NCBI GenBank assembly: GCA_021791275.1
Contig: JAJYWX010000028.1
Span: 11,582-67,748, forward strand
Source of the DNA: a bacterium
GTDB taxonomy: Bacteria; Patescibacteriota; Dojkabacteria; JAKAPS01; JAJZLI01
DNA length: 56,167 nt
Reading direction: 5' to 3'
This document shows positions 110-13,737 of this stretch, in pieces. The translations under genes and the position numbers were made by a program. The notes beneath the pieces were generated by a model, which worked only from the letters and a program-made list of their open reading frames with translations, was not told the origin of the DNA and did not search any database. The stretch's first letter is position 1; each line of letters opens with the position of its first letter.

Positions 110-529
110 TTACCTATCTAATACTCTATTAAAATCTTGATCATAACCAAAAGCACCTTCTTTTATTACTTTCCCATATTTATCATATATTACATAAGTT
201 TTTGATGTTTCTTCATCTTTAGTTTCGGTTGTATATTTAATTCTATTACCTCTTTTTCCGTAAGGTATCTCTTCGGAAAGAGAAGAGTATACAACTTCTC
301 CGTTCTTATATGTAGCTTCTGATTGAACTTCCCTTTTATCCTTAGGATTCTGCATTTCTGATCTTATATGAAGAATTTTTTTCCCATCTTTATCAGTAAA
401 TCTTTTTGTAACGGTTGTCATGTAAGAGCCGTTTTCTTCTCTTCGTGTTATCTCTTCTATAGAACCATCCTCTCTTTTTATAACTGTTGTTTCTCCTATT
501 GAAGAGAATTCTATTTCTAATGCACTCAT
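110..529 (-). CDS. hypothetical soluble protein (139 aa)
   Basis: Complete ORF in the track. It is charged and beta-rich with loosely repeated G-x-x-E/K motifs. I recognised no family. Confidence 0.5.
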   Translation of the reverse strand: MSALEIEFSSIGETTVIKREDGSIEEITRREENGSYMTTVTKRFTDKDGKKILHIRSEMQNPKDKREVQSEATYKNGEVVYSSLSEEIPYGKRGNRIKYTTETKDEETSKTYVIYDKYGKVIKEGAFGYDQDFNRVLDR

Positions 530-660
530 AATTTTATATTAATATAAAACAGAAAAGTTTACACCCCACAAGCTTGATTGTCAAATGTATAGCATAATTG
601 GGATAAAGTTGGATATGAAATTTTTTATTTTGACAGATTTTATATACAGATTAATAAGAT

Positions 661-747
661 CGGAGAGGGTGGGATTCGAACCCACGAGGAGCTTTCACCC
701 CTGACAGTTTTCAAGACTGTTACCTTCAACCGCTCGGTCACCTCTCC
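661..747 (-). tRNA. tRNA-Ser (anticodon UGA), type II with long variable arm
   Basis: The reverse complement reads GGAGAGGTGACCGAGCGGTTGAAGG...ACAGT-CTTGAAA-ACTGT...GGGTTCGAATCCCACCCTCTCCG. The acceptor, D, anticodon and T arms pair, and the loop CTTGAAA gives anticodon TGA. Confidence 0.9.
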
Positions 748-805
748 TTATGAATGAAAGTTATTATACAAAATTAGTATCAGTAAATCTAGCAAAACCT
801 TTATT

Positions 806-893
806 CGGAGAGAGCAAGATTCGAACTTGCGATTCTTTATTAAAGAATACTGTTTTTCGAGAACAGCCTGATAAACCACTCCAGCATCTCTCC
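806..893 (-). tRNA. tRNA-Ser (anticodon CGA), type II with long variable arm
   Basis: The reverse complement reads GGAGAGATGCTGGAGTGGTT...CTGTT-CTCGAAA-AACAG, then the variable arm ATTCTTTAATAAAGAAT, then GCAAGTTCGAATCTTGCTCTCTCCG. Confidence 0.88.
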
Positions 894-903
894 CCCTTTA
901 TCA

Positions 904-977
904 TGCTTCTGATAGGATTCGAACCTATACTCTCCAGATCCGCAATCTGGTGCTTTATCCAATTAAGCTACAGAAGC
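904..977 (-). tRNA. tRNA-Arg (anticodon GCG)
   Basis: The reverse complement reads GCTTCTGTAGCTTAATTGGATAAAGCA-CCAGA-TTGCGGA-TCTGG-AGAGT-ATAGGTTCGAATCCTAT-CAGAAGCA. It forms a 74-nt cloverleaf with anticodon loop TTGCGGA. Confidence 0.85.
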
Positions 978-984
978 ATAATTA

Positions 985-1563
985 TTACATCTTTATATAC
1001 TTTCCGTCTATTATTTGAGAAAAGAAATTTTGTTTTTTCTTAAATTCTTTATATTCAAGATATTCTGATAATATTTTATAAATATCTTTTTTCTGTTTTT
1101 CATCTACCAGATAAACTAGTCTTGCTGGTAAGCTATATTTTGTGTCTATATTTAAGACTATTTGCTCTCCTCTTTGGGAAAACCAAAAATCTGTTAAATC
1201 TTCATAGTCATAATCTTTTTGAAACCACTCAACATTCACATCTGTAATTTTGTGATTTATTGTATCTGGTGGAAATGTAACCATTGCATATATTACAAAA
1301 CCAAGTCCGAAGATAACCAGAATTGTCAAATATTCTTTTATAAAAAGAAGTATTACTATTATTACAAGTAACCACAAATAAACTGTGAAAAGTTTTTCTC
1401 TTTCCCATCTTTTAAAAACTCTAGCGGGAGATGACCACTCATAAAGTACGGTTGGTTTTCTATGTACTCTCTTCTTTCTATCTTCTTCCTGAGATATTTC
1501 AGACTTCAAGCTTTCAAGTTCCCTTTCTAATTGTTCTATTTTGGTCTTTTTATTGTCAGCCAT
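985..1563 (-). CDS. hypothetical membrane protein (N-terminal coiled coil, two TM helices)
   Basis: Complete ORF. It has a charged N-terminus (KIEQLERELESLKSEISQEE) followed by the hydrophobic stretch LFTVYLWLLVIIVILLFIKEYLTILVIFGLGFVIYAMV. Confidence 0.6.
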   Translation of the reverse strand: MADNKKTKIEQLERELESLKSEISQEEDRKKRVHRKPTVLYEWSSPARVFKRWEREKLFTVYLWLLVIIVILLFIKEYLTILVIFGLGFVIYAMVTFPPDTINHKITDVNVEWFQKDYDYEDLTDFWFSQRGEQIVLNIDTKYSLPARLVYLVDEKQKKDIYKILSEYLEYKEFKKKQNFFSQIIDGKYIKM

Positions 1564-1609
1564 TACTAACTTTATTGAATTAATGTAATATTACCAATAT
1601 ACTATATAT

Positions 1610-4378
1610 ATGTCCCAAAAAGATAATACATTATTTTACCATTCATTATACCCGTCTATTTTCAAAAAAACACTAGATGAGGAAAGTTTCCTCTATTCTC
1701 TAACTTCTGATGAGGTGGTTAAAATCTTAGAAACGGATAAAGATAAAGGTTTAGATTCTAAGAAAGCAGAAGAGCTAATAAATGAACATGGAGAGAATAG
1801 ACTGAGAGTAAAAAGAACTTTTAGCGGTGTCAATATATATATTTCTCAGTTCAAGGATTTTTTACAGCTACTTCTTCTTATTGCTGCACTTGCAGGTTTT
1901 TTAACTGGACAGTATGTGGTTGGTATAGTACTTTTACTTTTAATACTTTTTAACTCAACTGTCGGATTTTTACAGGAGTATAGTGCTAATAAAACTGTAG
2001 AATCTTTAGAGAAGTTGATTTCTAAAAAAACTACAGTTTTAAGAGATGGAAATATCCAAAATATTGACTCTTCTCTTTTGGTTCCTGGGGATATAATAAT
2101 TTTAAGAGCTGGAGATGATGTGCCTGCAGATTCAAGGCTTATTGAAGTTTCAGATCTAGAGTGTTTAGAGTCATCCATTACGGGAGAAAATAAGCCAGTA
2201 TTAAAGTCAGAGTCTCCTCATCCAAAAACAAAATTATCGATTTTCGAAGTATCAAATCTTATATTTATGGGGACCACAGTTGTTGCAGGAGAAGGAAAGG
2301 CTGTTGTTGTTGGTACAGGAATAAATACCGAATTTGGAAAGATCGCACTAACAACACAAAATGAAGTTAAGGGAAAATCTCCTTTACAGAAAGAAATATT
2401 TAAAACAGGAGAGTATCTTCTTATTATAGCCCTATTCGTTGGAATAATAGCTTTCATAATAAACTATTTTTATGCACAGCTTTCCATAGAGAATACACTT
2501 CTTTTATCCTTGGGGCTTGCAGTAGGTGTTGTTCCAGAGGGATTGCCATCTACAGTTACTGCTGCACTTGCTATAGCACTTAAAAAACTTTCTAAAGTAA
2601 ATGTTGTTGTTAAAAAATTAACATCTTCAGAAACCTTGGGTGCATGTAATGTTATTGTTACAGATAAAACAGGAACACTTACAAAAAATGAGATGAGTAT
2701 AAAAAAGATATACTCCCTTAATTCTAAAAAAACTGATTTTTCAATCTCTGGAGTAGGTTATTCTAAAGAAGGTAAGATTACACCTTATTCTATGGAGAGT
2801 GAATTGGCAAATCTTACGGTGGAGTGTTTTTCTTTGTGTAACAACTCTTATTTGACATTTGATAGTTCTGATAAAGGGTATGATTTGGTAGGGGATCCTT
2901 TAGAGGCTTCTTTAATATCTCTTGTTTATAAATTGGGTAAGAATCCAGATAAATTAAGAAAGGATTTTAAAAGAATACTGGAATTTCCATTTGACCCACA
3001 AAGAAAAATGATGTCTGTTCTAGTTATGAAAGATGGCAAAGAGAGAATCTATAGTAAAGGTGCGATTGAGTCAATACTGAAGGCATCTAAATTTATATTA
3101 ATGGATGATAAGAAAGTAAAACTAGACAACCATCTTAAAAATATGATTTTAGAAAAATCCAAAGAATTTGAAGAAGAGACTTTGAGAGTTTTATCTTTTG
3201 CATATAGGGACGTGCAGTCAAATGAATCTGTTAGTAAAAATAATATGGAAAGAGATTTAACTCTTGTAGGGATAGCCGGGATTTTTGATGCACCACGAGA
3301 AGAGGTTCCTAGCGCTGTAATTTCTGCAAAACAAGCTGGAATAAAAATATTTATGTGCACAGGAGACTCTCCAGATGTTGCTCTAAAAATTGGTGAAGAG
3401 GTTAATATAGCTGACAAGGATACTCCAGTTATACTTGGAAAAGATTTTCATAAAATGAAAGATGAAGATATCGAGAAAATTTTATTATCTGAAAGCGCTA
3501 TTTTTGCAAGGGTAACACCTTTGGATAAGCTTCGGGTTGTAAAACTCTTAAAATCCCAAGGTAATGTTGTAGCAGTGACAGGGGACGGGGTAAACGATGC
3601 TCCAGCTCTAAAGGCTGCAGATATAGGCGTTGCTATGGGAATTACCGGAACAGATGTGGCAAAAGAGAGTGCAGATATGATACTTTTAAATGATAGTTTT
3701 TCTTCGATTGTTTATGCAATAAAAGAGGGAAGAATTATTTATGATAATATAAAGAAATTTATTCGATTTACTGTTGCCATAGATATAGCTGAGATGCTTT
3801 CAGTATTCTTTGCATCTATATTAAAATTTCCTCCAATAATGTATGTATTACAAATTCTTACTATAGATTTAATTGTAAATATAATACCTGCACTAATTCT
3901 TGCATCTGATATAGCAGATCCAGATATAATGTTTAGAAAACCTAGGAGTAAAAATTCACACCTTTTTGACAAGGAGACGGTAATACCAATTATGATTAAT
4001 GGTACAATAATAGCTATATTTGCAGTTATAATATTTTATATAACACTAAAGAAGTTTGGAAATTATAATATGGCAACAACTGCAGCATACTCAACGTTGG
4101 TCTTTTCTCAGATAGCCAACCTATTAAGTTCAAGATCATACAAGTTTTCAATTACTACATTCCATTTAAAATCATATGGGAAAATATTTTTAGGAATAAT
4201 TGCAATAATAATATTTCAGTCTTTCTTTATATACACACATTTTGCAAATAGTATTATTCATACATATCCTCTAAATATATCAATAATATTTCTCTACATT
4301 ATAGTAATAATATTACTTCTAATATTTGAAGAGTTTAGGAAATTTATCATAAGGAAGTTTAATTTTGATTCTCAGTGA
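1610..4378 (+). CDS. P-type cation-transporting ATPase (type II, Ca2+/Mg2+-like)
   Basis: Contains the phosphorylation motif DKTGTLT, the TGES-like motif ITGENKP, the hinge motif TGDGVNDAPALKAADIGVAMG and about 10 TM segments in 922 aa. Confidence 0.92.
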   Translation: MSQKDNTLFYHSLYPSIFKKTLDEESFLYSLTSDEVVKILETDKDKGLDSKKAEELINEHGENRLRVKRTFSGVNIYISQFKDFLQLLLLIAALAGFLTGQYVVGIVLLLLILFNSTVGFLQEYSANKTVESLEKLISKKTTVLRDGNIQNIDSSLLVPGDIIILRAGDDVPADSRLIEVSDLECLESSITGENKPVLKSESPHPKTKLSIFEVSNLIFMGTTVVAGEGKAVVVGTGINTEFGKIALTTQNEVKGKSPLQKEIFKTGEYLLIIALFVGIIAFIINYFYAQLSIENTLLLSLGLAVGVVPEGLPSTVTAALAIALKKLSKVNVVVKKLTSSETLGACNVIVTDKTGTLTKNEMSIKKIYSLNSKKTDFSISGVGYSKEGKITPYSMESELANLTVECFSLCNNSYLTFDSSDKGYDLVGDPLEASLISLVYKLGKNPDKLRKDFKRILEFPFDPQRKMMSVLVMKDGKERIYSKGAIESILKASKFILMDDKKVKLDNHLKNMILEKSKEFEEETLRVLSFAYRDVQSNESVSKNNMERDLTLVGIAGIFDAPREEVPSAVISAKQAGIKIFMCTGDSPDVALKIGEEVNIADKDTPVILGKDFHKMKDEDIEKILLSESAIFARVTPLDKLRVVKLLKSQGNVVAVTGDGVNDAPALKAADIGVAMGITGTDVAKESADMILLNDSFSSIVYAIKEGRIIYDNIKKFIRFTVAIDIAEMLSVFFASILKFPPIMYVLQILTIDLIVNIIPALILASDIADPDIMFRKPRSKNSHLFDKETVIPIMINGTIIAIFAVIIFYITLKKFGNYNMATTAAYSTLVFSQIANLLSSRSYKFSITTFHLKSYGKIFLGIIAIIIFQSFFIYTHFANSIIHTYPLNISIIFLYIIVIILLLIFEEFRKFIIRKFNFDSQ

Positions 4379-4408
4379 AAATTTGATATATTCTAAAGAT
4401 ATATAATT

Positions 4409-5500
4409 ATGTATGAGTTAATACCATCAGAAAAGTATCTGGATGACCTTCTCTCATTTTCTAAAAAAGCAAAAGAGAGAATATATATACAGGCAATGCA
4501 TGTTGTTTTTAATGACAAGTTTTCTGAATTTATAAATGAGCTAATTTCGGCAAAGAAAAGAGGAGTTGATGTAAGACTAAATATTGATGATTACTCTAAA
4601 GTATATAATAATCTAGGCCATAGGTATTTGCATATATCAAAAAACAAATTATATAAATGCCAAAAAGATGCAAGCAGAAGTAGGTTTTATATAGATAAAT
4701 TATTAAGAGCAGGAGTAGACGTACTTTTTATTAATGAATATAAATATAACAAAAAATTGGCAGAATATATTCCTTTTTTAGGAAGGAATCATATGAAAAT
4801 TACAGTTATTGACGATATATCATATATAGGTGGTATAAATCTTTCGTCCAAATCTCTTAACTATATTGATTTTATGCTACGTACAAATGATAAATCATTG
4901 TTGGATGCACTAATAGATTTATTCTTTAAAAGTAGAAATAATATAAATTTTAATGATTATAAAATTAACTTAGAAGGAGGGGATACTCTCTTAGTAGATT
5001 CTGGGAAAACCTATAAATCGATAATATATGATACTGTTCTTAAAGAGATCTATAATTCAAAAGATTCTATATTGTACATATCGCAATTTCTCCCTGATTT
5101 TAAAATTTTAAAAGCTTTGAAATTTGTTCAATCAAGGGGAGTAGATGTAAATATAATAACTCATGCAAGTCATGTTTCTGAAAAAAAATATAGAACATTT
5201 GTTGAACATTCAATGTTTAATTTCTCTAACTTGAATATAAGGAATGTATATTTCAGTAAAGATAGGTATGTTCATGCTAAAATGGTAATAATTGATAAGG
5301 GTAAAGAGAGTGAAAGGGCAATATTTGGATCACATAATTTTTCTACATTTGGGGTACTTTTTGGAACTAAAGAGATATCACTTTTGACTAGGAACAAACA
5401 GGTTATAGATATGCTATATCTCTGGTATAATAGTATAAAGCCTGAAGACAATAAATTAGTTAAATACGCTACTCCAGCCCAATCGAGCAAACATATTTAG
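4409..5500 (+). CDS. phospholipase D superfamily protein (two HKD motifs; cardiolipin/phosphatidylserine synthase-like)
   Basis: HKD motif 1 is HMKITVIDDISYIGGINLS and HKD motif 2 is HAKMVIIDKGKESERAIFGSHNFS. Confidence 0.8.
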   Translation: MYELIPSEKYLDDLLSFSKKAKERIYIQAMHVVFNDKFSEFINELISAKKRGVDVRLNIDDYSKVYNNLGHRYLHISKNKLYKCQKDASRSRFYIDKLLRAGVDVLFINEYKYNKKLAEYIPFLGRNHMKITVIDDISYIGGINLSSKSLNYIDFMLRTNDKSLLDALIDLFFKSRNNINFNDYKINLEGGDTLLVDSGKTYKSIIYDTVLKEIYNSKDSILYISQFLPDFKILKALKFVQSRGVDVNIITHASHVSEKKYRTFVEHSMFNFSNLNIRNVYFSKDRYVHAKMVIIDKGKESERAIFGSHNFSTFGVLFGTKEISLLTRNKQVIDMLYLWYNSIKPEDNKLVKYATPAQSSKHI

Positions 5501-5530
5501 GTAGTTAGTATTTTCAGAAGATGATACTTT
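5239..5530 (+). repeat. Repeat X, copy 1 (native 3' end of the PLD gene plus about 30 bp downstream)
   Basis: The same sequence (aaggaatgtatatttcagtaaagataggtatgttcatgc...caaacatatttaggtagtta...) recurs at 8637-8928 and 10603-10862 with only scattered mismatches by eye. Confidence 0.9.
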
Positions 5531-5531
5531 G

Positions 5532-5663
5532 TATATTTAATATTTGGCTATTTGGTGGTATAATGTCCGGGTGAATAATTTTGAAGGTGAACAATTTTTG
5601 CACGGAATGGATAGTACACTGCATACCTCTGTACCGGTGGAACATAGCCAATCTCAAAGACCT
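5532..5663 (+). repeat. 132-bp leader repeat, copy A (promoter plus first codons of the LRR gene)
   Basis: tatatttaatatttggctatttggtggtataatgtccggg...caatctcaaagacct recurs at 9955-10086 with the same length. I saw one small difference, tttttg versus ttcctg. Confidence 0.9.
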
Positions 5664-8576
5664 CCAAGTGAAAGATCTCAGAGACCTAGGGAGAAGATAT
5701 CATCCTGGTTAAGAGTGATAGAAAGAACCCATGGACATGATGATCCAATAGTACAAGAAAGGATAAAAGCATCTTACCATAAAAGGTATGTGATAAAACC
5801 TGGAAACTTTCCAGATGCATATTTTACAAGACAACAAGAGAATGCAAGGAGACAGGGTCTGGGAGATATAGAGATTACGGAGGAGATGAGATCTGAGCAA
5901 ATAGGTATGGCAATAGAGAATCAGAAGAGATCTCTAGATATATGGATAGATTATCTTTTATCATCTGATTCTAGCTATATGCCTACATGGGTAAAATATT
6001 GGGTTTTTACTGGGATGGTAAAGTTAGGAGGATATGATAAAGAGAAGAGGGTTTTTCATCCTCGTAGGATACATACTGTATCAGCTTTTCCGGAATTAAA
6101 TAGAGAAGCTTTAGCTCTTGCAGTAGAACTGATACAAACAAAAGTAAGGGAGCCTGAGATACAAGGGGAGAGAGATAGGATTCTTGCAAGTTCTAATTTT
6201 GGTAAGTATTATGCATATGCGATAGATAAAGTAATACCTACAGGAGATAATAGTAATGAATTACTAAATACAGAAGGAGAATGGGTTAAATGGAAACAGG
6301 GATCTGATTATGGACAATTAGTAGATTCATTACGTGGTATGGGGACAGGATGGTGTACAGCAAATGATGTTGTAGCTAGGAAGCAATTAGAATCTGGAGA
6401 TTTTCATATTTACTATACAAAAGATAAAGAAGGACAATTAACAATGCCAAGGATAGCGATAAGGATGAAAGGGGGGCATATAGCTGAGATAAGAGGTATT
6501 GATAATGATCAGAATATTGATCCATATATTTTAGGTGTTTTAGATGAGAAGTTAGAAGAGTTTGGGGAGGAGGGGGAATTATACAAGGAGAAGGTATCTG
6601 ATATGAGATTGTTAACAAGTATATCTGATAAAGTAGACAATGGGGAGCCACTAAGTATAGAAGAGTTAAGGTTTCTATATGAGATTGATAGACAAATCAT
6701 TGGATTTGGATATGTTAAGGATCCGAGGATATTTGAGATAATAGAGAGGAGGAATATTAGAGAAGATTTGTCATTAATTTTTGGATGTAGGGAAGATCAG
6801 ATTAGTTTAACTGCTGAAGAAGCTATATCTGGAGATATTAGATACCACCATGGAGAACTTTATCTTGGTAATTTAGAATCTGCAGAGGGTTTACAATTAC
6901 CTGAAATTGTAGGAGGATCTCTTGATCTTAGAAATTTGATTTCTGCTGAGGGGGTACAATTACCTGAGAGTGTAGGAGGGGATCTTGATCTTGGTAATTT
7001 AGAATCTGCAGAGGGTTTACAATTACCTGAGAGTGTAGAAGGGGGACTTTATCTTAGTAGTTTAGAATCTGCAGAGGGTTTACAATTACCTGAGAGTGTA
7101 GGAGGGGGACTTTATTTTGGTAATTTGTCTTCTGCTAAGGGTTTACAATTACCTGAACGTGTAGTAGGGAATCTTGATTTTGGTAATTTAGAATCTGTAG
7201 AGGGTTTACAATTACCTGAAAGTGTAGGAGGGGGACTTTATTTTGGTAATTTGTCTTCTGCTAAGGGGTTACAATTACCTGAACATGTAGGAGGGAATCT
7301 TAGTCTTGGGAATTTAGAATCTGCAGAGGGGTTACAATTACCTGAACATGTAGGAGGAAATCTTGATCTTGGTAATTTAGAATCTGCAGAGGGGTTACAA
7401 TTACCTGAACATGTAGGAGGAAATCTTGATCTTGGTAGTTTAGAATCTGCAGAGGGGTTACAATTACCAGAAAGTGTAGTAGGGAATCTTGATCTTAGAC
7501 ATTTGCGTTCTGCTGAGGGGTTACAATTACCTGAACATGTAGGAGGAGATCTTGATCTTAGTAATTTGCGTTCTGCAGAGGGTTTGCGATTACCAGAAAG
7601 TGTAGGAGGGAATCTTAGTCTTGGGAATTTAGAATCTGCAGAGGGGTTACAATTACCAGAAAGTGTGGGATGGAATCTTGAGCTTTCTAATTTAGAATCT
7701 GCAGAAGGGTTACAATTACCTGAAATTGTAGGAGGGGAACTTAATCTTAGTAATTTGCGTTCTGCAGAGGGTTTGCGATTACCTGAAAGTGTAGGAGGGG
7801 GACTTGATCTTGGTAGTTTAGAATCTGCAGAGGGGTTACAATTACCTAAACATGTAGGGGGAGATCTTAATCTTGGTAATTTAGAATCTGCTGAGGGGTT
7901 ACAATTACCAGAACATGTAGTATGGAATCTTAATCTTGGGAATTTGCGTTCTGCTAAAGGGGTACGATTCCCCAAAAATGTGGGATGGAACCTTGGTCTT
8001 GGTAGTTTAGAATCTGCAGAAGGGGTACAATTACCCGAAAGTGTAGGAGGGGATCTTAATCTTAGTAATTTGCGTTCTGCTAAAGGGGCACGATTCCCTG
8101 GAAATGTAGGAGGAAATCTTAATCTTAGTCGTTTAGAATCTGCAGAAGGGTTACAATTACCTGAAATTGTAGGAGGGGCGCTTTATCTTAGTCGTTTAGA
8201 ATCTGCAGAGGGGGTACAATTACCAGAAAGTGTAGGATGGAATCTTGATCTTAGACATTTGCGTTCTGCTAAAGGGGTACGATTCCCTGGAAATGTAGGA
8301 GGAGATCTTAATCTTGATAATTTAGAATCTGCTGAGGGGGTACAATTACCAGAACATGTAGGATGGAATCTTGATCTTAGACATTTGCGTTCTGCTAAAG
8401 GGGCACGATTCCCTGGAAATGTAGGAGGAAATCTTAATCTTAGTCGTTTAGAATCTGCAGAAGGGTTACAATTACCAGAAAGTGTAGGAGGAAGTATTTA
8501 TCTTTTTAGTTTAAAATCTACTGAAGGATTAAATCTTCTAAGGATTGGGGAGGGCAAGTTTACATTGGTGAACTAA
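5544..8576 (+). CDS. LRR-A: repeat protein with an N-terminal domain of about 440 aa of unknown function, then 26 tandem 21-aa leucine-rich-type repeats and a C-terminal cap
   Basis: The track ORF starts at TTG 5544. If the TATAAT at 5559 is the promoter, ATG 5607 (MDSTLHTS...) is the likelier start. The repeat consensus is L-G-N-L-E-S-A-E-G-L-Q-L-P-E-x-V-G-G-N-L-D. No signal peptide is visible. Confidence 0.85.
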   Translation: MAIWWYNVRVNNFEGEQFLHGMDSTLHTSVPVEHSQSQRPPSERSQRPREKISSWLRVIERTHGHDDPIVQERIKASYHKRYVIKPGNFPDAYFTRQQENARRQGLGDIEITEEMRSEQIGMAIENQKRSLDIWIDYLLSSDSSYMPTWVKYWVFTGMVKLGGYDKEKRVFHPRRIHTVSAFPELNREALALAVELIQTKVREPEIQGERDRILASSNFGKYYAYAIDKVIPTGDNSNELLNTEGEWVKWKQGSDYGQLVDSLRGMGTGWCTANDVVARKQLESGDFHIYYTKDKEGQLTMPRIAIRMKGGHIAEIRGIDNDQNIDPYILGVLDEKLEEFGEEGELYKEKVSDMRLLTSISDKVDNGEPLSIEELRFLYEIDRQIIGFGYVKDPRIFEIIERRNIREDLSLIFGCREDQISLTAEEAISGDIRYHHGELYLGNLESAEGLQLPEIVGGSLDLRNLISAEGVQLPESVGGDLDLGNLESAEGLQLPESVEGGLYLSSLESAEGLQLPESVGGGLYFGNLSSAKGLQLPERVVGNLDFGNLESVEGLQLPESVGGGLYFGNLSSAKGLQLPEHVGGNLSLGNLESAEGLQLPEHVGGNLDLGNLESAEGLQLPEHVGGNLDLGSLESAEGLQLPESVVGNLDLRHLRSAEGLQLPEHVGGDLDLSNLRSAEGLRLPESVGGNLSLGNLESAEGLQLPESVGWNLELSNLESAEGLQLPEIVGGELNLSNLRSAEGLRLPESVGGGLDLGSLESAEGLQLPKHVGGDLNLGNLESAEGLQLPEHVVWNLNLGNLRSAKGVRFPKNVGWNLGLGSLESAEGVQLPESVGGDLNLSNLRSAKGARFPGNVGGNLNLSRLESAEGLQLPEIVGGALYLSRLESAEGVQLPESVGWNLDLRHLRSAKGVRFPGNVGGDLNLDNLESAEGVQLPEHVGWNLDLRHLRSAKGARFPGNVGGNLNLSRLESAEGLQLPESVGGSIYLFSLKSTEGLNLLRIGEGKFTLVN
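5556..5564 (+). promoter_or_regulatory. candidate extended -10 promoter element (TGgTATAAT) for the LRR gene
   Basis: A perfect TATAAT sits at 5559-5564 and is preceded by TGn. The -35 region is weak. The element is duplicated at 9979-9987 in front of the truncated copy. Confidence 0.4.
6864..8573 (+). repeat. Coding tandem array of 26 x 63 bp (6864-8501) plus a degenerate terminal unit (8502-8573)
   Basis: The period is exact: 6864 + 26x63 = 8502, which lands on the start of the cap unit (ctttttagtttaaaatct). Adjacent units 7311-7373 and 7374-7436 look identical. Confidence 0.95.
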
Positions 8577-8636
8577 GGTTATAGATTTATCACAATGGCA
8601 AAAAATTGCTGAAAAGATATTCTCTGTACTTATTAA

Positions 8637-8928
8637 AAGGAATGTATATTTCAGTAAAGATAGGTATGTTCATGCCAAAATGGTAATAATTGATAAGGGT
8701 AAAGGGAGTGAAAGAGCAATATTTGGATCACATAATTTTTCTACATTTGGGGTACTTTTTGGGACTAAAGAGATATCACTTTTAACTAGGAACAAACAGG
8801 TTATAGATATGCTATATCTCTGGTATAATAGTATAAAGCCTGAAGACAATAAATTAGTTAAATACGCTACTCCAGCCCAATCGAGCAAACATATTTAGGT
8901 AGTTAGCATTTTCAGAAGATGATATTTT
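8637..8928 (+). pseudogene. Repeat X, copy 2: detached 3' fragment of the PLD gene (encodes ...NVYFSKDRYVHAKMVIIDKGKGSERAIFGSHNFS...SSKHI*)
   Basis: It matches 5239-5530 over the full 292 bp. It has no upstream ATG in frame other than the internal Met of HAKM (track ORF 8680..8898). Confidence 0.8.
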
Positions 8929-9756
8929 CGCAGTATAGTATATAAAGGTAAAATATTTTCCCTGAGATATTTTTACTTCTATACTTGCAGCTCCAAGACC
9001 ATATTTTAAATAATAAATTACGTTATGGTATATTATAAGTCCATCAACTGTAAAAGGTATATATCCCCAAGAATTAAATTTTGAAATATAATAATTTAGT
9101 ATCTGAGTATCCGTAGGCTGGTTCACTTTATTTATTATTGCAATACCCTTTATCTCTTCTACCGGTATATTATATTGAGAGTGTATTACATTAAGATAAT
9201 TAGATTTAAAAAAATAAAATTGTGTACTTGTAATTTCAGGTACACTGCTAAATTGTAGAGATGAAAGAACATTTTTCATATCTGTGTAAGAGAAAGGATA
9301 TGGGGAAGCAACTTCTTTTGATATGAATAAAGATTGTACATCTTTTTCTATTTTTGAAGGTATAAATATTATCTCCTCAGTGGTATTTTTAACTTTTGCA
9401 TACTCTACGATACTGTTGTCTTTATTTAGTATTATATTATTTTCATTGATTTGGTAATTCCAATTTTTATGAATATAGTAAAGTAGTGTGGGAATTTCAA
9501 TTGAATTGAAATTTTTTTGAAGATATGTTTTTAATACTAATCCTTTTGCACTAGAGCTGACTTGCTCAGTTCCTTTAAGGGGTATATTCAGTGGATTATA
9601 TATTGCTACTATAGGAGTATAGTTTATTTTTGTGATGCTTTTCTGAGTATTTATTATTTGAGGAATTTTTATAGTTTTTGTAAATATTAGTGTCACTATT
9701 GCCAAATAGAGTATTATTATGAATGCAAAAAACAGAAATTTTTTTTTCTTTCTCAT
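8854..9756 (-). CDS. hypothetical membrane-anchored or secreted protein (300 aa)
   Basis: Complete ORF with N-terminal MRKKKKFLFFAFIIILYLAIVTLIF as a signal or anchor. The last roughly 25 codons (about 8854-8928) are encoded antisense inside repeat X copy 2. Confidence 0.6.
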   Translation of the reverse strand: MRKKKKFLFFAFIIILYLAIVTLIFTKTIKIPQIINTQKSITKINYTPIVAIYNPLNIPLKGTEQVSSSAKGLVLKTYLQKNFNSIEIPTLLYYIHKNWNYQINENNIILNKDNSIVEYAKVKNTTEEIIFIPSKIEKDVQSLFISKEVASPYPFSYTDMKNVLSSLQFSSVPEITSTQFYFFKSNYLNVIHSQYNIPVEEIKGIAIINKVNQPTDTQILNYYISKFNSWGYIPFTVDGLIIYHNVIYYLKYGLGAASIEVKISQGKYFTFIYYTAKISSSENANYLNMFARLGWSSVFN

Positions 9757-9823
9757 TATTATAGATATTATACATAAAAATCTTTTATATCAAAAGAAAC
9801 TTTGATATACTCTATTAAATTGA

Positions 9824-9911
9824 GGAGAGGTACCCAAGAGGCTGAAGGGGAGGGTTTGCTAAACCCTTAGGAGGAGAAATCCTCGCGAGAGTTCGAATCT
9901 CTCTCTCTCCG
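9824..9911 (+). tRNA. tRNA-Ser (anticodon GCU), type II
   Basis: GGAGAGGTACCCAAGAGGCTGAAGGGG-AGGGT-TTGCTAA-ACCCT, then the variable arm TAGGAGGAGAAATCCTCGC, then GAGAGTTCGAATCTCTCTCTCTCCG. Confidence 0.88.
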
Positions 9912-9954
9912 AATAAATATTTTTATATCTTTACCTTAATGTACTGACTCTCTA

Positions 9955-10086
9955 TATATTTAATATTTGGCTATTTGGTGGTATAATGTCCGGGTGAATA
10001 ATTTTGAAGGTGAACAATTCCTGCACGGAATGGATAGTACACTGCATACCTCTGTACCGGTGGAACATAGCCAATCTCAAAGACCT
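9955..10086 (+). repeat. 132-bp leader repeat, copy B
   Basis: Matches 5532-5663, including TGgTATAAT (9979-9987) and the ATG (10030) that corresponds to ATG 5607. Confidence 0.9.
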
Positions 10087-10543
10087 CGATCTTAATCATT
10101 TGCGTTCTGCTAAAGGGGTACGATTTCCCAAAAATGTGGGATGGAATCTTGATCTTGGCCGTTTAGAATCTGCAGATGGGGTACAATTACCAGAAAGTGT
10201 GGGATGGAATCTTGATCTTGGCCGTTTAGAATCTGCAAAAGGGGTACGATTCCCTGAACATGTAGGAGGAAGTATTTATCTTGGTAATTTAGAATCTGCT
10301 GAGGGGTTACAATTACCAGAACATGTAGGAAGGAATCTTGATCTTAGACATTTGCGTTCTGCTAAAGAGGTACGATTCCCTGGAAATGTAGGAGGAAATC
10401 TTAATCTTAGTCGTTTAGAATCTGCAGAGGGTTTACGATTCCCTGAACATGTAGGAGGAAGTATTTATCTTTTTAGTTTAAAATCTACTGAAGGATTAAA
10501 TCTTCTAAGGATTAGGAAGGGCGTGTTTGCATTGGTGAATTAA
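10004..10543 (+). pseudogene. LRR-B: truncated paralogue or possible silent cassette (leader fused directly to 6 x 63-bp LRR units plus cap; N-terminal domain absent)
   Basis: LRR units run 10091-10468 with the cap at 10469-10540. In the frame used by LRR-A (TTG 9967 / ATG 10030), translation stops at TAA 10093-10095. The LRR frame is reachable only from TTG 10004, which is the track ORF. Confidence 0.55.
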
Positions 10544-10602
10544 GGTTATAGATTTATCAAAATGGTAAAAAATTGCTGAAAAGATATTCTCTGTACTTAT
10601 TA

Positions 10603-10862
10603 AAAGGAATGTATATTTCAGTAAAGATAGGTATGTTCATGCCAAAATGGTAATAATTGATAAGGGGAAAGAGAGTGAAAGGGCAATATTTGGATCACAT
10701 AATTTTTCTACATTTGGGGTACTTTTTGGAACTAAAGAGATATCACTTTTAACTAGGAACAAACAGGTTATAGATATGCTATATCTCTGGTATAATAGTA
10801 TAAAGCCTGAAGACAATAAATTAGTTAAATACTCTACTCCAACCCAATCGAGCAAACATATT
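10603..10862 (+). pseudogene. Repeat X, copy 3: detached 3' fragment of the PLD gene
   Basis: Matches 5239-5498. It encodes ...HAKMVIIDKGKESERAIFGSHNFS...YSTPTQSSKHI and diverges immediately after caaacatatt. Confidence 0.8.
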
Positions 10863-11047
10863 ATTGTATATATTTTGAAATTGATGAGGTTTTTTGGTAA
10901 AATGCGTGAGATATGTCTGATATAATTAATATGTTAACTGATGTTTTAGTAAGTTTTCTTACTTGCGGTACTGCCATGGTGGTCCTCTTTATTGCCATAG
11001 CAATTACTCTTTCGATTTTTGTACATGCACATATACATTTATAAGAT

Positions 11048-11509
11048 ATGTCAGGAGTAGAGACTAGAATAAAAGAAGATTGTAATGAATATACATGTTC
11101 TCCTTATGAGGCAATTTTGTGTGTTGCTATTGCTACAGGGTTAATTAAAAATAGATCTGAGGCTCATAGTTTAAAAGATGGTAAAATCAGGTATGGTAAT
11201 GAGGATCTGGATCTTCATAATTTTGAAGATGTCTTAAAACTATTAGACTATTTAGTTTTAGATATGGAAGAGCTTTTATCGCGTACAAATTTTTCTGATG
11301 AAGATCAAATCCTTCCATTCTTACCCCTTTTGGATAGAGGATATTTTCAAACTTTGAGAGATAATTTGGAGGAAATACACTCTAAGGGTTTTTCTAATAC
11401 TTCATATCCATTAATTTTGAATGGAAAAAGCATCATAATACGACTTCCTAGAGAAGATGTGAGAAATATTCAATCATATGTTGAAAATGCATTAGATGAT
11501 ATGGTTTGA
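11048..11509 (+). CDS. hypothetical protein (153 aa, acidic)
   Basis: Complete ORF in the track. I recognised no motif. Confidence 0.5.
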   Translation: MSGVETRIKEDCNEYTCSPYEAILCVAIATGLIKNRSEAHSLKDGKIRYGNEDLDLHNFEDVLKLLDYLVLDMEELLSRTNFSDEDQILPFLPLLDRGYFQTLRDNLEEIHSKGFSNTSYPLILNGKSIIIRLPREDVRNIQSYVENALDDMV

Positions 11510-11521
11510 TTTGATATATTA

Positions 11522-12085
11522 TTGATATATAATATACATAAAATGATATTCAATATAGAAGGTATACCCATTAGTTATTCTGTTAATTATTCTAGAAGAT
11601 CAAAGAGTATAAAAATTTCAATTTATAAGGACAATACTTTAAGAGTAACAGTTCCTAAATATAGGAGGAATATTAGTATCGAGAAAGTATTATTAGAGAA
11701 GAAGGATTGGATTTTATCTGCAATTTCAGAAAATAAAAATGTAATAAAAATAGAAGACGTTAAAGATTACGATCTTTTTAAAAAGGACTATTTAAAGTAT
11801 ATAAAAAAGAGGGTAGACTACTACAATACATTCTATAATCTTGAATATAAGAATATTAGTATACGTCGTTCAAAGACTAGGTGGGGTAGCTGTTCTGTAA
11901 AGAATAATTTGAATTTTAACTATAAAATATACTATCTCCCCCAACCTCTTTCAGATTATGTCATAGTACATGAGATTTGCCATTTAATGGAGTTTAATCA
12001 TTCTAAAAATTTTTGGAATTTAGTTGAAAAAACAATTCCAGACTATAAAGAAATTAAAAAGAGATTAAAGGGCTATTCTCTTTAG
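11522..12085 (+). CDS. YgjP/DUF45-type (M48-like) metal-dependent hydrolase
   Basis: HEICHLMEFNHSKNFW is the HExxH...NHS..FW signature of the YgjP/DUF45 family. The track start is TTG 11522, but ATG 11543 (MIFNIEG...) is the more likely start. Confidence 0.7.
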   Translation: MIYNIHKMIFNIEGIPISYSVNYSRRSKSIKISIYKDNTLRVTVPKYRRNISIEKVLLEKKDWILSAISENKNVIKIEDVKDYDLFKKDYLKYIKKRVDYYNTFYNLEYKNISIRRSKTRWGSCSVKNNLNFNYKIYYLPQPLSDYVIVHEICHLMEFNHSKNFWNLVEKTIPDYKEIKKRLKGYSL

Positions 12086-12153
12086 TGTAAAAATGTTATA
12101 TAATAAGGCAAAGATAAGGACTACAAAAATTCTGTCCATATTGTATATTGTAT

Positions 12154-12182
12154 TTGCAATATGTTCTGTTTATTTGTATAAT
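12154..12182 (+). promoter_or_regulatory. candidate sigma-70 promoter of the tuf/ribosomal-protein operon
   Basis: TTGCAA (12154-12159), a 17-nt spacer, then TATAAT (12177-12182) preceded by TG. It lies about 30 nt upstream of the tuf ATG. Confidence 0.5.
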
Positions 12183-12212
12183 TCTTTTGTTTAATTTAGT
12201 TTATTTGAATAT

Positions 12213-13412
12213 ATGGCATCTTTTGATAGAACAAAACCACACAAAAATGTTGGAACAATAGGTCATGTTGACCATGGTAAAACAACATTAACAGCAGCAA
12301 TACTTAAGGTTCTTGGCGCAGCAGGGTTTGCAGCACAAAATAAGGACGTTAATAATCTTGATAGTGCTCCAGAAGAAAAAGCAAGAGGGGTTACTATTGC
12401 TACAGCTCATACTGAGTATGAGACTCAAAATTTTCACTATGCACATGTAGATTGTCCTGGACACGCAGATTATGTAAAAAATATGATTACAGGTGCAGCT
12501 CAAATGGATGGCGCAATCTTGGTTGTAGCAGCTACTGATGGCCCTATGCCTCAAACTCGAGAGCACATACTTTTAGCAAGACAAGTAGGTGTTCCTAAAA
12601 TTGTTGTATTTTTAAATAAAATAGATCAAGTTGATGATCCTGAGCTTGTTGATTTAGTCGAATTGGAGGTAAGAGAACTTTTGACTAAATATGAATTTAA
12701 TGGTGATGAGACTCCTATAATAAGGGGTAGTGCACTTAAGGCTTTGGAGCATGCTTGTGGTAAAGAAGATTGCGAGTGGTGTGGCCCTATATTGAAATTA
12801 ATGCAAAATGTAGATGACTACATTCCTATTCCAGAAAGAGAAGTAGATAAACCATTTTTGATGCCAGTTGAAGATGTATTTTCAATTGAAGGAAGAGGTA
12901 CAGTTGCAACAGGTAGGGTTGAAAGAGGTACTCTTAAATCAGGTGAAGAGATTGAGATTATAGGGCTTAGGGATGATATTAGAAAAACTGTAGTTACTGG
13001 AATTGAAATGTTTAATAAATCTCTAGATTCAGCTCAGGCTGGTGATAACGTAGGATTGCTTTTAAGAGGGTTAAAAAGAGAAGAAATTCAAAGAGGAGAA
13101 GTTGTTGCTAAACCTGGTAGTGTTACTCCTCATACAGAATTCGAAAGTGAGGTTTATATATTGAATAAGGAAGAAGGTGGAAGACATTCACAATTTGTAT
13201 CTGGTTATAGACCTCAATTCTATATCAGAACAACAGATGTTACTGGTGAGATTCAACTTCCAGATGGTGTTGAGTGTGCCTTACCGGGAGATAACTTAAA
13301 GATGAATGTAAGATTGATTACTCCTGTAGCATTAGAAGAAGGTTTGAGGTTTGCTATAAGAGAGGGAGGTAGAACTGTTGGTGCTGGAGTAATAACTAAG
13401 ATAGTTAAGTAA
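12213..13412 (+). CDS. tuf: elongation factor Tu
   Basis: [18 protein letters not shown] and NKID G-motifs; collinear with EF-Tu along the full length. Confidence 0.98.
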
Positions 13413-13434
13413 GCTCTTTTTAAGTATATTATTT

Positions 13435-13737
13435 ATGGATAAAAAAATAAGGGTAAAATTAAAGGGATTTGATATCGAAGTTCTGGATAAGTCTGCACAA
13501 AAGATTATAGATGCAGCAATATCTTCTGGGGCTAGGACATCGGGTCCCATTCCCTTACCTACGTCTGTAAAAAAATATACAGTAAATAGGTCTCCGCATA
13601 TTGATAAAAGATCTATGGAGACTTTTGAGATGAGGGTACACAAAAGACTTATTGATATACTGTCCCCTACGGGTAAAACTATAGATACATTGACACATTT
13701 ACAGCTTCCTGTTGGTGTTGGTATCGAGATTAAGTAG
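13435..13737 (+). CDS. rpsJ: 30S ribosomal protein S10
   Basis: IRVKLKGFD...SGPIPLPT...RSPHIDKRS, and its position after tuf. Confidence 0.95.
   Translation: MDKKIRVKLKGFDIEVLDKSAQKIIDAAISSGARTSGPIPLPTSVKKYTVNRSPHIDKRSMETFEMRVHKRLIDILSPTGKTIDTLTHLQLPVGVGIEIK

Follow-up and report, generated by a model that had tools for sequence, protein, structure and literature searches.

Organization of the Locus

The DNA analysed here (hereafter the window: 56,167 nt of contig JAJYWX010000028.1, assembly GCA_021791275.1) belongs to the low-G+C chromosome of a bacterium of the Candidate Phyla Radiation (CPR, or Patescibacteria). It carries, ahead of the EF-Tu gene and the S10/spc ribosomal operon, a locus built around a long repeat-containing gene and a partial copy of it. 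The two were termed LRR-A and LRR-B (LRR, leucine-rich repeat) in the initial annotation and these names are kept for convenience. They alternate with three copies of the 3′ end of a phospholipase D (PLD)-like gene (X1, X2 and X3), a gene coding for 300 amino acids (aa) and a tRNA gene. The features of the locus are the following:

4409..5500, + strand: PLD-like gene, 363 aa with two HKD domains (Pfam PLDc_2 twice and PLDc); the X repeats derive from its last ~280 nt
5222..5530, + strand: X1, PLD 3′ end including the second HKD motif, plus stop codon and ~30 nt beyond; left copy of a 309-bp duplication, attached to the intact PLD gene
5532..5664, + strand: leader A, with promoter-like box, GTG start and first 31 codons (alignment and promoter scan)
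5571..8576, + strand: LRR-A, 1001 aa, with an N-terminal domain (N-domain) of ~430 aa, 26 units (array 6858-8519) and a unique cap unit (family N-terminus; Tandem Repeats Finder, TRF)
8577..8619, + strand: trailer (the “linker” of the initial annotation) after the LRR-A stop; meets X2 via a weak TTCTCT microhomology
8620..8928, + strand: X2, displaced PLD tail at the native junction; holds in antisense the last 45 nt of the 300-aa gene
8854..9756, − strand: 300-aa gene, conserved, convergent with PLD and with a native 45-nt overlap of the PLD tail
9824..9911, + strand: tRNA-Ser (GCT), with a strain-variable 3′ flank
9955..10087, + strand: leader B, with box 9960-9987, GTG start 9994 and an open reading frame (ORF) of 33 codons running to a TAA (9994-10095)
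10088..10543, + strand: LRR-B, made of seven repeat units and the cap in a frame other than that of the leader start
10544..10586, + strand: trailer B, 96.7% identical to the LRR-A trailer
10587..10862, + strand: X3, third PLD-tail copy, cut just ahead of the stop codon and closest to X2

Repeated blocks were mapped by repeat finding, alignments and BLAST within the window. The three kinds of repeat described in the initial annotation are all real, with coordinates corrected as listed above. The two leaders, which comprise ~40 nt upstream of the start and the first 31 codons, have 2 mismatches in 133 nt (98.5% identity, E 9e-64), both synonymous. The PLD-tail copies X2 (96.1%) and X3 (96.4%) give matches with E values of 1e-128 to 1e-144; the ~30 nt that follow the stop codon are common to X1 and X2 while X3 stops short of that codon. 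The block at the 3′ end proved longer than first annotated: a gapless match of 757 nt (8139-8895 versus 10106-10862; 58 mismatches, 92.3%) spans seven repeat units, the stop codon, the trailer and the PLD tail. No further copies of the leader, 3′ or PLD-tail blocks were found elsewhere in the window. According to TRF, a 63-nt unit is repeated 26.4 times at 6858-8519 and ~6 times at 10115-10486.

The G+C content is 0.35-0.41 over positions 5500-8500 and 10000-10500 versus 0.25-0.33 in the flanks. The enrichment noticed in the initial annotation is real, yet a foreign island was dropped as its cause because the coding content of the repeats and the N-domain explains the rise and the EF-Tu region (0.35-0.37) is equally G+C-rich. 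As annotated initially, neither the repeated unit nor the entire window codes for a recombinase, a transposase or a reverse transcriptase (RT) (ORF list, Pfam searches and an RT check). There are no inverted repeats in 4000-12500, no terminator-like sites were detected, and Rfam models found no non-coding RNA in leader or trailer, the tRNA-Ser (GCT) being the only hit. A transposon or insertion sequence was rejected given the lack of inverted repeats and transposase and the size of the duplication (309 bp here, 33-310 nt in other lineages, see below). The same holds for an integrative element of the integrase type, since the unit is a single gene and no recombinase domain is recognized by Pfam or NCBIfam.

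LRR-A and Its Product

GTG 5571 is taken as the true start of LRR-A because the product initiated there (MNNFEGEQFLH..LHTS) fits the conserved N-terminus of its protein family (see below). The best plus-strand promoter-like site of the region, TTAATA-16-TGgTATAAT, is found at 5537-5564 and again, in leader B, at 9960-9987. The LRR-A mRNA is probably leaderless or nearly so, given that GTG 5571 sits only 6 nt past the −10 box. Residues 1 to ~430 of the protein constitute the N-domain, and the array that follows has 26 units of 63 nt (21 aa) before the cap. This number of units is exceptional: complete relatives of the repeat type have 4-12. The 245-aa antisense ORF inside the array (7238-7975, − strand) is no gene but a consequence of the periodicity of the sequence.

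The AlphaFold2 model of the N-domain (mean predicted local distance difference test, pLDDT, 81.5) has no fold match in the PDB (best E 0.96), and the domain belongs to no Pfam or NCBIfam family and has no detectable nuclease or recombinase. The 21-aa repeats match no Pfam LRR family at E ≤ 0.01, and their sole LRR-type match, of 26 bits to the LRR part of the NCBIfam model SlrP, is far under the cut-off. The model of the repeat part (pLDDT 85, predicted template modelling score 0.83) is an all-beta solenoid with coils of ~21 residues whose best PDB matches are beta-helix, pentapeptide-repeat and autotransporter proteins, none of them significant. The label “LRR” is doubtful on these grounds and should be read as a predicted “LRR-like 21-residue solenoid repeat”. 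LRR-A has no evident signal peptide or anchor.

LRR-B, a Silent Partial Copy

From the shared GTG 9994 the reading frame of LRR-B runs for 33 codons to a stop, while the seven units and the cap lie in another frame that offers weak internal TTG/GTG starts only. Relative to the full-length gene, LRR-B lost the sequence from codon 32 through to the seventh unit from the end, i.e., the N-domain and ~19 units. It is a silent partial copy, unable to make the protein because its units are out of frame with the leader start, in agreement with the truncated copy of the initial annotation. LRR-B keeps an ORF of 179 codons in a ~30% G+C genome despite having no usable start. The mismatches between the A and B copies fall on all four bases (21 A, 17 G, 14 T, 6 C), and a relation of the kind created by diversity-generating retroelements (DGRs) was ruled out as there is neither adenine bias nor RT. 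LRR-B is the only silent copy at the locus.

Support for the Structure in Independent Assemblies

Sibling contigs were reached by exact-protein look-ups. The order of blocks seen in the window was recovered in GCA_027425375.1, GCA_027339905.1, JGI 3300039716, ERZ27237044, ERZ27237285 and ERZ27237177. Single nucleotide polymorphisms specific to X1, X2 or X3 also recur in at least 6 independent assemblies from NCBI, ENA and JGI. This repetition makes an assembly artefact very unlikely. Collapsed or chimeric repeats in a metagenome-assembled genome (MAG) would be in line with the frequent contig breaks at the X copies, inside the array and at tRNA-Ser, but the copies differ at enough sites to be resolved with k=141 and we give this explanation almost no credence. 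Scans of metagenome contigs and genome contigs with the PLD protein returned no matches, and look-ups with EF-Tu and with the X2, X3 and LRR-B ORFs revealed no new structural variants. In three JGI 3300039716 contigs (L004, L098 and L108), otherwise 99.95% identical, a single-base indel splits the equivalent of the PLD gene (4409-5500) into ORFs of 54 and 290 aa, which is either a pseudogene or a sequencing error.

Variation among Strains and Probable Exchange between LRR-A and LRR-B

Two siblings, L001 (GCA_027425375.1) and L006 (GCA_027339905.1), have flanks at least 99.8% identical to the window in global alignments and differ from it in the array. LRR-A has exactly one unit fewer in L001 and ten fewer, lost in four blocks, in L006, so that the strains carry 26, 25 and 16 units. 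The order of units in L006 is A-27..A-21, A-15..A-12, B-4, A-10, A-6, B-3, B-2, B-1. Its units B-4, B-3 and B-2 are identical to those of LRR-B while B-1 differs at 2 nt. L006 is thus a hybrid array of the kind that the initial annotation had envisaged, and the only one found. Over the tract 8401-8600, which covers the last units, the stop codon and the first 24 nt of the trailer, L006 has 2 differences from LRR-B and 15 from the LRR-A of the window. The next 295 nt (X2) have 0 differences from X2 of the window and 6 from X3, and L006 retains X2, the 300-aa gene and tRNA-Ser beside the B-like tract. A tract so sharply bounded in a near-identical background indicates recombination with B-like sequence.

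The PLD Junction and the Origin of the X Copies

The neighbour of LRR-A is a member of the PLD/HKD superfamily (PF13091 twice and PF00614) whose second HKD motif is contained in the X copies. Five related lineages conserve a cluster of an ATPase gene, PLD and the convergent 300-aa gene; in four of them nothing lies between PLD and the 300-aa gene. The two genes overlap by 45 nt in the empty sites of L009/L010 (PLD 93% identical) and L014-16, are separated by a 3-nt spacer in L104/L105 and overlap by 4 nt in L106. All lineages conserve the C-terminus GW(S/N)S(V/I)FN of the 300-aa protein. Past the ~30 nt that follow the stop codon, only X2 remains homologous to the empty-site relative L009, X1 entering the leader at this point, which identifies X2 and the 300-aa gene as the native junction.

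The 3398-nt stretch formed by X1, leader, LRR-A and trailer consequently reads as an insertion accompanied by a 309-bp target duplication, through which both overlapping neighbours, PLD and the 300-aa gene, survive intact. The initial annotation had viewed the PLD pieces as purpose-built homology arms; with X2 at its native position and empty sites in relatives, they are better understood as a target duplication. The junction between trailer and X has the TTCTCT microhomology only, and its geometry is most likely that expected from Campbell-type (“ends-in”) integration through the PLD tail, or from tandem duplication. The layout is also that of elements integrating into gene 3′ ends, though no integrase is present. 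Derived states and the trailer are common to X2 and X3, which therefore descend from one trailer-X junction; both have slightly more non-synonymous changes than X1.

The LRR-B unit begins 43 nt past tRNA-Ser, whose 3′ flank varies among strains and relatives. In L006 unrelated DNA (a 95-aa ORF and a NUDIX gene) starts straight after position 9916 instead of the LRR-B unit, and the ERZ27237044 contigs (L002/L007 and L114) break at the same base 3′ of tRNA-Ser. Toxin-antitoxin, Fic or DUF433 genes occupy this flank in L014 and L104. Together these observations suggest that the flank is a polymorphic islet. On comparison of window positions 1610-9756 with L011, of the second species described below, a block corresponding to positions ~110-9756 (a 139-aa ORF at 110-529, ATPase, PLD, family gene and 300-aa gene) proved to be inverted in that species relative to the window, as judged against the BacA and EF-Tu flanks; one end of the inversion is at the 300-aa/tRNA-Ser side, next to the position of LRR-B in the window.

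A Second Species with One to Three Cassettes

A second species (L011, L012, L013 and L017), whose PLD is 54% identical to the one of the window, carries 1, 2 or 3 genes of the LRR-A family between PLD and a 303-aa gene, the site being empty in its sister lineage L104 (83% identical). L011 has a single gene (g1), L017 has g1 and a full-length gene, L013 has g1, g2 and a full-length g3, and L012 has a g1/g3 recombinant. L011, L013 and L017 are at least 99.8% identical upstream, so that cassette number varies among close siblings of this species. Upstream of each gene stands a 67-nt PLD fragment, directly followed by post-stop sequence and leader. Both g1 and g2 are then followed by 60 nt of the 303-aa gene tail, a tandem-duplication junction. 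Of the gene start they retain promoter, start codon and 23 or 14 codons, which are joined in frame, with differing breakpoints, to the region that immediately precedes the repeats. The left breakpoints of LRR-B, g1 and g2 all fall within the first 14-31 of the ~430 N-domain codons, and two of the three preserve the frame. Three independent truncations that remove the N-domain and keep the leader are unlikely to result from random deletion (roughly (31/430)^3 by our own estimate), which hints that leader-tagged products, or donors, consisting only of repeats may be tolerated or useful.

The N-Domain Family Includes Targets of Diversity-Generating Retroelements

More than 3000 proteins match the N-domain with ~50% identity over 90-100% of its length, nearly all of them hypothetical proteins from Patescibacteria/CPR MAGs. 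Their alignment shows invariant residues, including a GTGWC motif, and the window gene qualifies as a family member. Eighty family loci from GTDB genomes were confirmed by tblastn. Twenty-eight of them are of the repeat type and 10 have an RT gene in the locus, none of these 10 being repeat-type. A pair of variable region (VR) and template region (TR) was found in eight loci (L037, L058, L079, L080, L083, L093, L095 and L096). The VR occupies the final ~135 nt of the gene, with the TR ~490 nt downstream (~720 nt in L080). Over the eight loci, 132 of the 136 VR/TR mismatches are at TR adenines, and the adjacent gene is RVT_1 in 3/3 loci tested. The adenine bias and the adjacent RT identify these loci as canonical DGRs, and hence the N-domain family as one that includes CPR DGR targets. 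This fits the report that DGR targets are modular and that those of CPR clade 2 lack recognisable domains (Roux et al. 2021, PMC8144416).

The gene of the window lacks a C-type-lectin VR, and neither a TR nor an RT is found within 56 kb; it does not qualify as a DGR target. The same N-domain appears to bear either a tip mutated by a retroelement or a repeat tip that recombines. Diversification of the family by DGRs elsewhere makes selection for C-terminal variability plausible, but does not prove a programmed system in the window. The statement of the initial annotation that no such system was described holds for the layout, which is new, while the gene comes from a family with DGR targets among its members. 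No description of this N-domain family or layout was found in the literature.

A few other observations were made in the family loci. L037:9678-11692 is a DGR-target member with a non-repeat C-terminus, and L031, L049, L053 and L077 were grouped with such members. L083 has a 3.1-kb tandem duplication (7445-10560 = 10551-13666, 99.9%) of a whole DGR-type gene with its upstream sequence and TR, which is real or an assembly effect. At L021:7992-12538 two unrelated downstream genes start with MLREGEQF and MLIEGEQF, like the MFREGEQFLH of the family gene. The N-terminal motif, which is also kept in truncated copies, may on this hint be a portable module, e.g., a targeting signal. Family members in MAGs labelled Gammaproteobacteria, Bdellovibrionota, Nanoarchaeota and others (e.g., L018, L029, L033, L046, L050, L054, L064, L067, L068 and L075) are either mis-binned CPR contigs or a sign that the family spread past CPR.

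Tail Duplications in Other Lineages

In four other, unrelated CPR lineages the tail of the upstream gene is found copied 13-34 nt past the stop codon of the family gene:

LigA tail in L026: 7836-7960 = 9851-9977, 125 nt, 77% identical
FolC-like tail in L064: 4467-4775 ~ 6348-6641, ~300 nt, 58% aa identity over 71 aligned aa
Glycosyltransferase tail in L047: 7782-7820 ~ 10110-10148, ~45 nt
LepA tail in L035: 33 nt past the stop at 2945 (33 nt in length), with the start codon ATG of the following gene among them

At a threshold of ≥30 bits, tail duplications accompany 4/54 family genes (one of which, in L028, was later discarded) versus 1/174 control genes of the same loci, a comparison of few cases. 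Flank duplications in L028, L025 and L056 were dropped as generic intergenic palindrome or promoter elements. Such modules (a ~40-nt element or palindrome with a TATAAT promoter) precede unrelated genes in some CPR genomes and mimic flank duplications. They are found at the following places:

L056: 1230-1345, 2070-2185, 2960-3100 and 5270-5400
L025
L028: 7905-7964 = 9953-10012

The geometry of the footprint is as in the window and points to an arrival of the gene through insertions in which the junction between closely packed neighbours becomes duplicated. It would reflect either a specific mechanism or the mere survivorship of insertions that spared both neighbours. Taken further, the family gene could be a small mobile cassette that inserts at packed-gene junctions with long and variable target duplications, the window having received two insertions. 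Its mobility would be aided perhaps by its own N-domain, or perhaps rely on DNA uptake and homology-anchored integration. The diversity of the upstream genes whose tails were duplicated and the excess over controls speak for such a cassette, as do the left ends of the A and B units, which agree within ~3 nt, and the occupation of the PLD junction in two sister pairs with empty partners. We nevertheless see in it a slim prospect: duplications of 33-310 nt are at odds with a single transposition chemistry, no nuclease, recombinase or other known fold is detectable in the N-domain, terminal repeats are lacking, ~90% of the loci are without duplication, and the statistics come from few cases in which selection for intact neighbours alone could enrich for insertions that carry a duplication.

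How the Locus May Vary

We consider it moderately probable that the C-terminal part of a CPR “variable-tip” protein varies at this locus by general recombination, with no dedicated mechanism and with LRR-B serving as donor now and then. The general homologous recombination of the cell would find its substrates in the 63-nt units and in the shared arms (leader on the 5′ side; last units, cap, trailer and X on the 3′ side). Recombination would change the length of the array in both directions. By gene conversion it would transfer parts of the silent copy to the expressed gene, and between X copies it could delete or add entire units. The PLD-tail duplication itself would have arisen by integration of the Campbell type (“ends-in” or homology-anchored) or by tandem duplication through the PLD tail. 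The net effect would be a variable C-terminal, presumably ligand-binding, part in a family that other CPR lineages diversify with DGRs. Neither a dedicated enzyme nor a signal would be involved, and the rate would resemble strain-level evolution rather than rapid switching.

Several observations weigh against this interpretation. The direction of exchange, A-to-B or B-to-A, was deduced from three alleles only; the A-type end in the window could itself be an import from another strain, and the L006 contig ends ahead of any LRR-B. All assemblies are short-read consensus sequences of a 63-nt array, for which chimeric paths are possible, and consensus assemblies cannot reveal minor variants. The array is identical in the window and in L002/L007, L004 and L005, from independent samples, so variation would not seem frequent at the sampled scale and rapid programmed switching is not supported. 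The position of LRR-B past the 300-aa gene and tRNA-Ser, together with a PLD tail of its own, finds no explanation in a single simple event. Truncated copies beside repeat-type family genes were found elsewhere at only one of the 28 loci (L017), itself of the second species. Finally, the dN/dS of LRR-B versus the last seven units of LRR-A is ~0.97 (about 1), as for a decaying pseudogene, a value to which little weight was given since the compared units may not be orthologous.

The initial annotation had likened the locus to an expression site with a donor cassette. Shared arms, a silent copy, the mosaic L006 and the cassettes of the second species are in keeping with this comparison, which is partly supported; the PLD arms are better understood as a target duplication, the donor is single and decayed, and switching at high frequency was not observed. 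In its strongest form, it would be a programmed high-frequency system of the pilE/pilS type in which LRR-A is the expression site, LRR-B a maintained donor, and the arms are selected for the continual production of new C-terminal variants within populations. The arms stand on both sides of both copies, the long ORF of LRR-B persists without a start, a mosaic allele exists, near-identical strains of the second species have 1-3 cassettes with two truncated copies in frame and intact, and DGR diversification of the family makes C-terminal variability appear selected. We judge such a programme decidedly unlikely because there is a single silent copy, the arrays are identical in at least 4 independent assemblies, dN/dS is ~1, and the X copies are explained as a target duplication required by overlapping neighbours. 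Moreover, no initiating element (G-quadruplex, nick site or recombinase) or inverted repeat is present, and the layout is absent from the 27 other repeat-type loci.

The opposite proposal, that a segmental or tandem duplication followed by deletions left LRR-B, X2 and X3 as dead by-products and that strain differences arose by slippage and allele import, is unlikely too. The frame shift in LRR-B, its dN/dS, the slight excess of non-synonymous changes in X2 and X3, junctions with weak microhomology only and a tRNA-Ser flank that is strain-variable anyway are all what such neutral debris would display. The B-identical units and the bounded 200-nt tract of L006, however, need a B-like donor in a 99.8% identical background, and the clustering of the LRR-B, g1 and g2 left breakpoints, two of them in frame, has the low chance probability estimated above.

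A broader proposal, which we regard as doubtful, would make the N-domain family a dedicated “variable-tip” protein with two interchangeable routes of diversification. One would be a lectin-like tip mutated by DGRs and the other a repeat tip reshuffled against leader-tagged copies lacking the N-domain, the gene moving as a compact cassette that leaves tail duplications of 33-310 bp. If true, episymbiotic bacteria would possess a mobile and self-diversifying gene system of a kind not described before.

Significance and Comparison with Known Systems

CPR/Patescibacteria live attached to other cells, and to our knowledge almost nothing is known on the proteins that mediate or vary this contact. 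The locus links a family hypermutated by DGRs in some lineages, a repeat tip that recombines among nearly identical strains and to which a silent copy apparently adds sequence, and insertions that duplicate the tail of a neighbouring gene. If confirmed, it provides a candidate host- or phage-interaction protein under diversifying selection in CPR, and a case of recombination-based variation in a group thought to rely on DGRs. Tail duplications and leader-tagged truncated copies would then be a simple signature for gene movement in compact genomes.

The closest parallels are the gene-conversion systems pilE/pilS of Neisseria and MgPa/MgPar of Mycoplasma genitalium. As in these systems, a full-length expressed gene coexists with a non-expressible partial copy, defective on its promoter-proximal side, both have conserved flanks in common, and stretches may move non-reciprocally into the expressed gene by recombination of the RecA type. 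Unlike them, the locus has one silent copy, which keeps promoter and start but is frame-shifted; its arms include a piece of a housekeeping gene; there is no initiating structure, and the frequent in-population variation from a donor repertoire is not observed, the donor being single and the arrays identical. With the DGR variable proteins of CPR bacteria, reportedly the subject of Paul et al. 2017, and in particular those of clade 2, the window gene shares the ~430-aa N-domain (40-55% identity) and the C-terminal position of the variable module. It differs from them by the lack of lectin VR, TR and RT and by having as module a 21-aa array that changes by recombination.

Phage 21 and e14 integrate in icd, and tRNA-targeting islands are similar: integration takes place at the 3′ end of the gene, which receives a replacement tail. 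The order gene, tail copy, insert and displaced tail leading into the native downstream region is the same here, with the target gene intact. The insert, however, is a single 3-kb gene without integrase, the repeat (309 bp, 96% identity) lacks a short identical core, and the length of the duplication differs among lineages (33-310 nt). Campbell-type insertion-duplication and homology-facilitated illegitimate recombination occur in naturally transformable bacteria. The window, as far as its sequence alone tells, shares with them one anchor (the PLD tail), an additive insert between duplicated anchors and microhomology at the non-homologous junction.

Streptococcal alpha C/Rib proteins are tandem-repeat surface proteins, and SlrP/IpaH are bacterial LRR effectors. 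LRR-A resembles the former by its unit number, which varies among strains, and the latter by its weak match to the LRR region of SlrP. It is set apart from both by the lack of a Pfam LRR match, the predicted all-beta solenoid, the lack of an evident signal peptide or anchor, and the partial second copy that contributes sequence. Against this background, the locus would be a case, in a new layout, of variation through recombination within an uncharacterised family for which DGRs otherwise provide the diversity.

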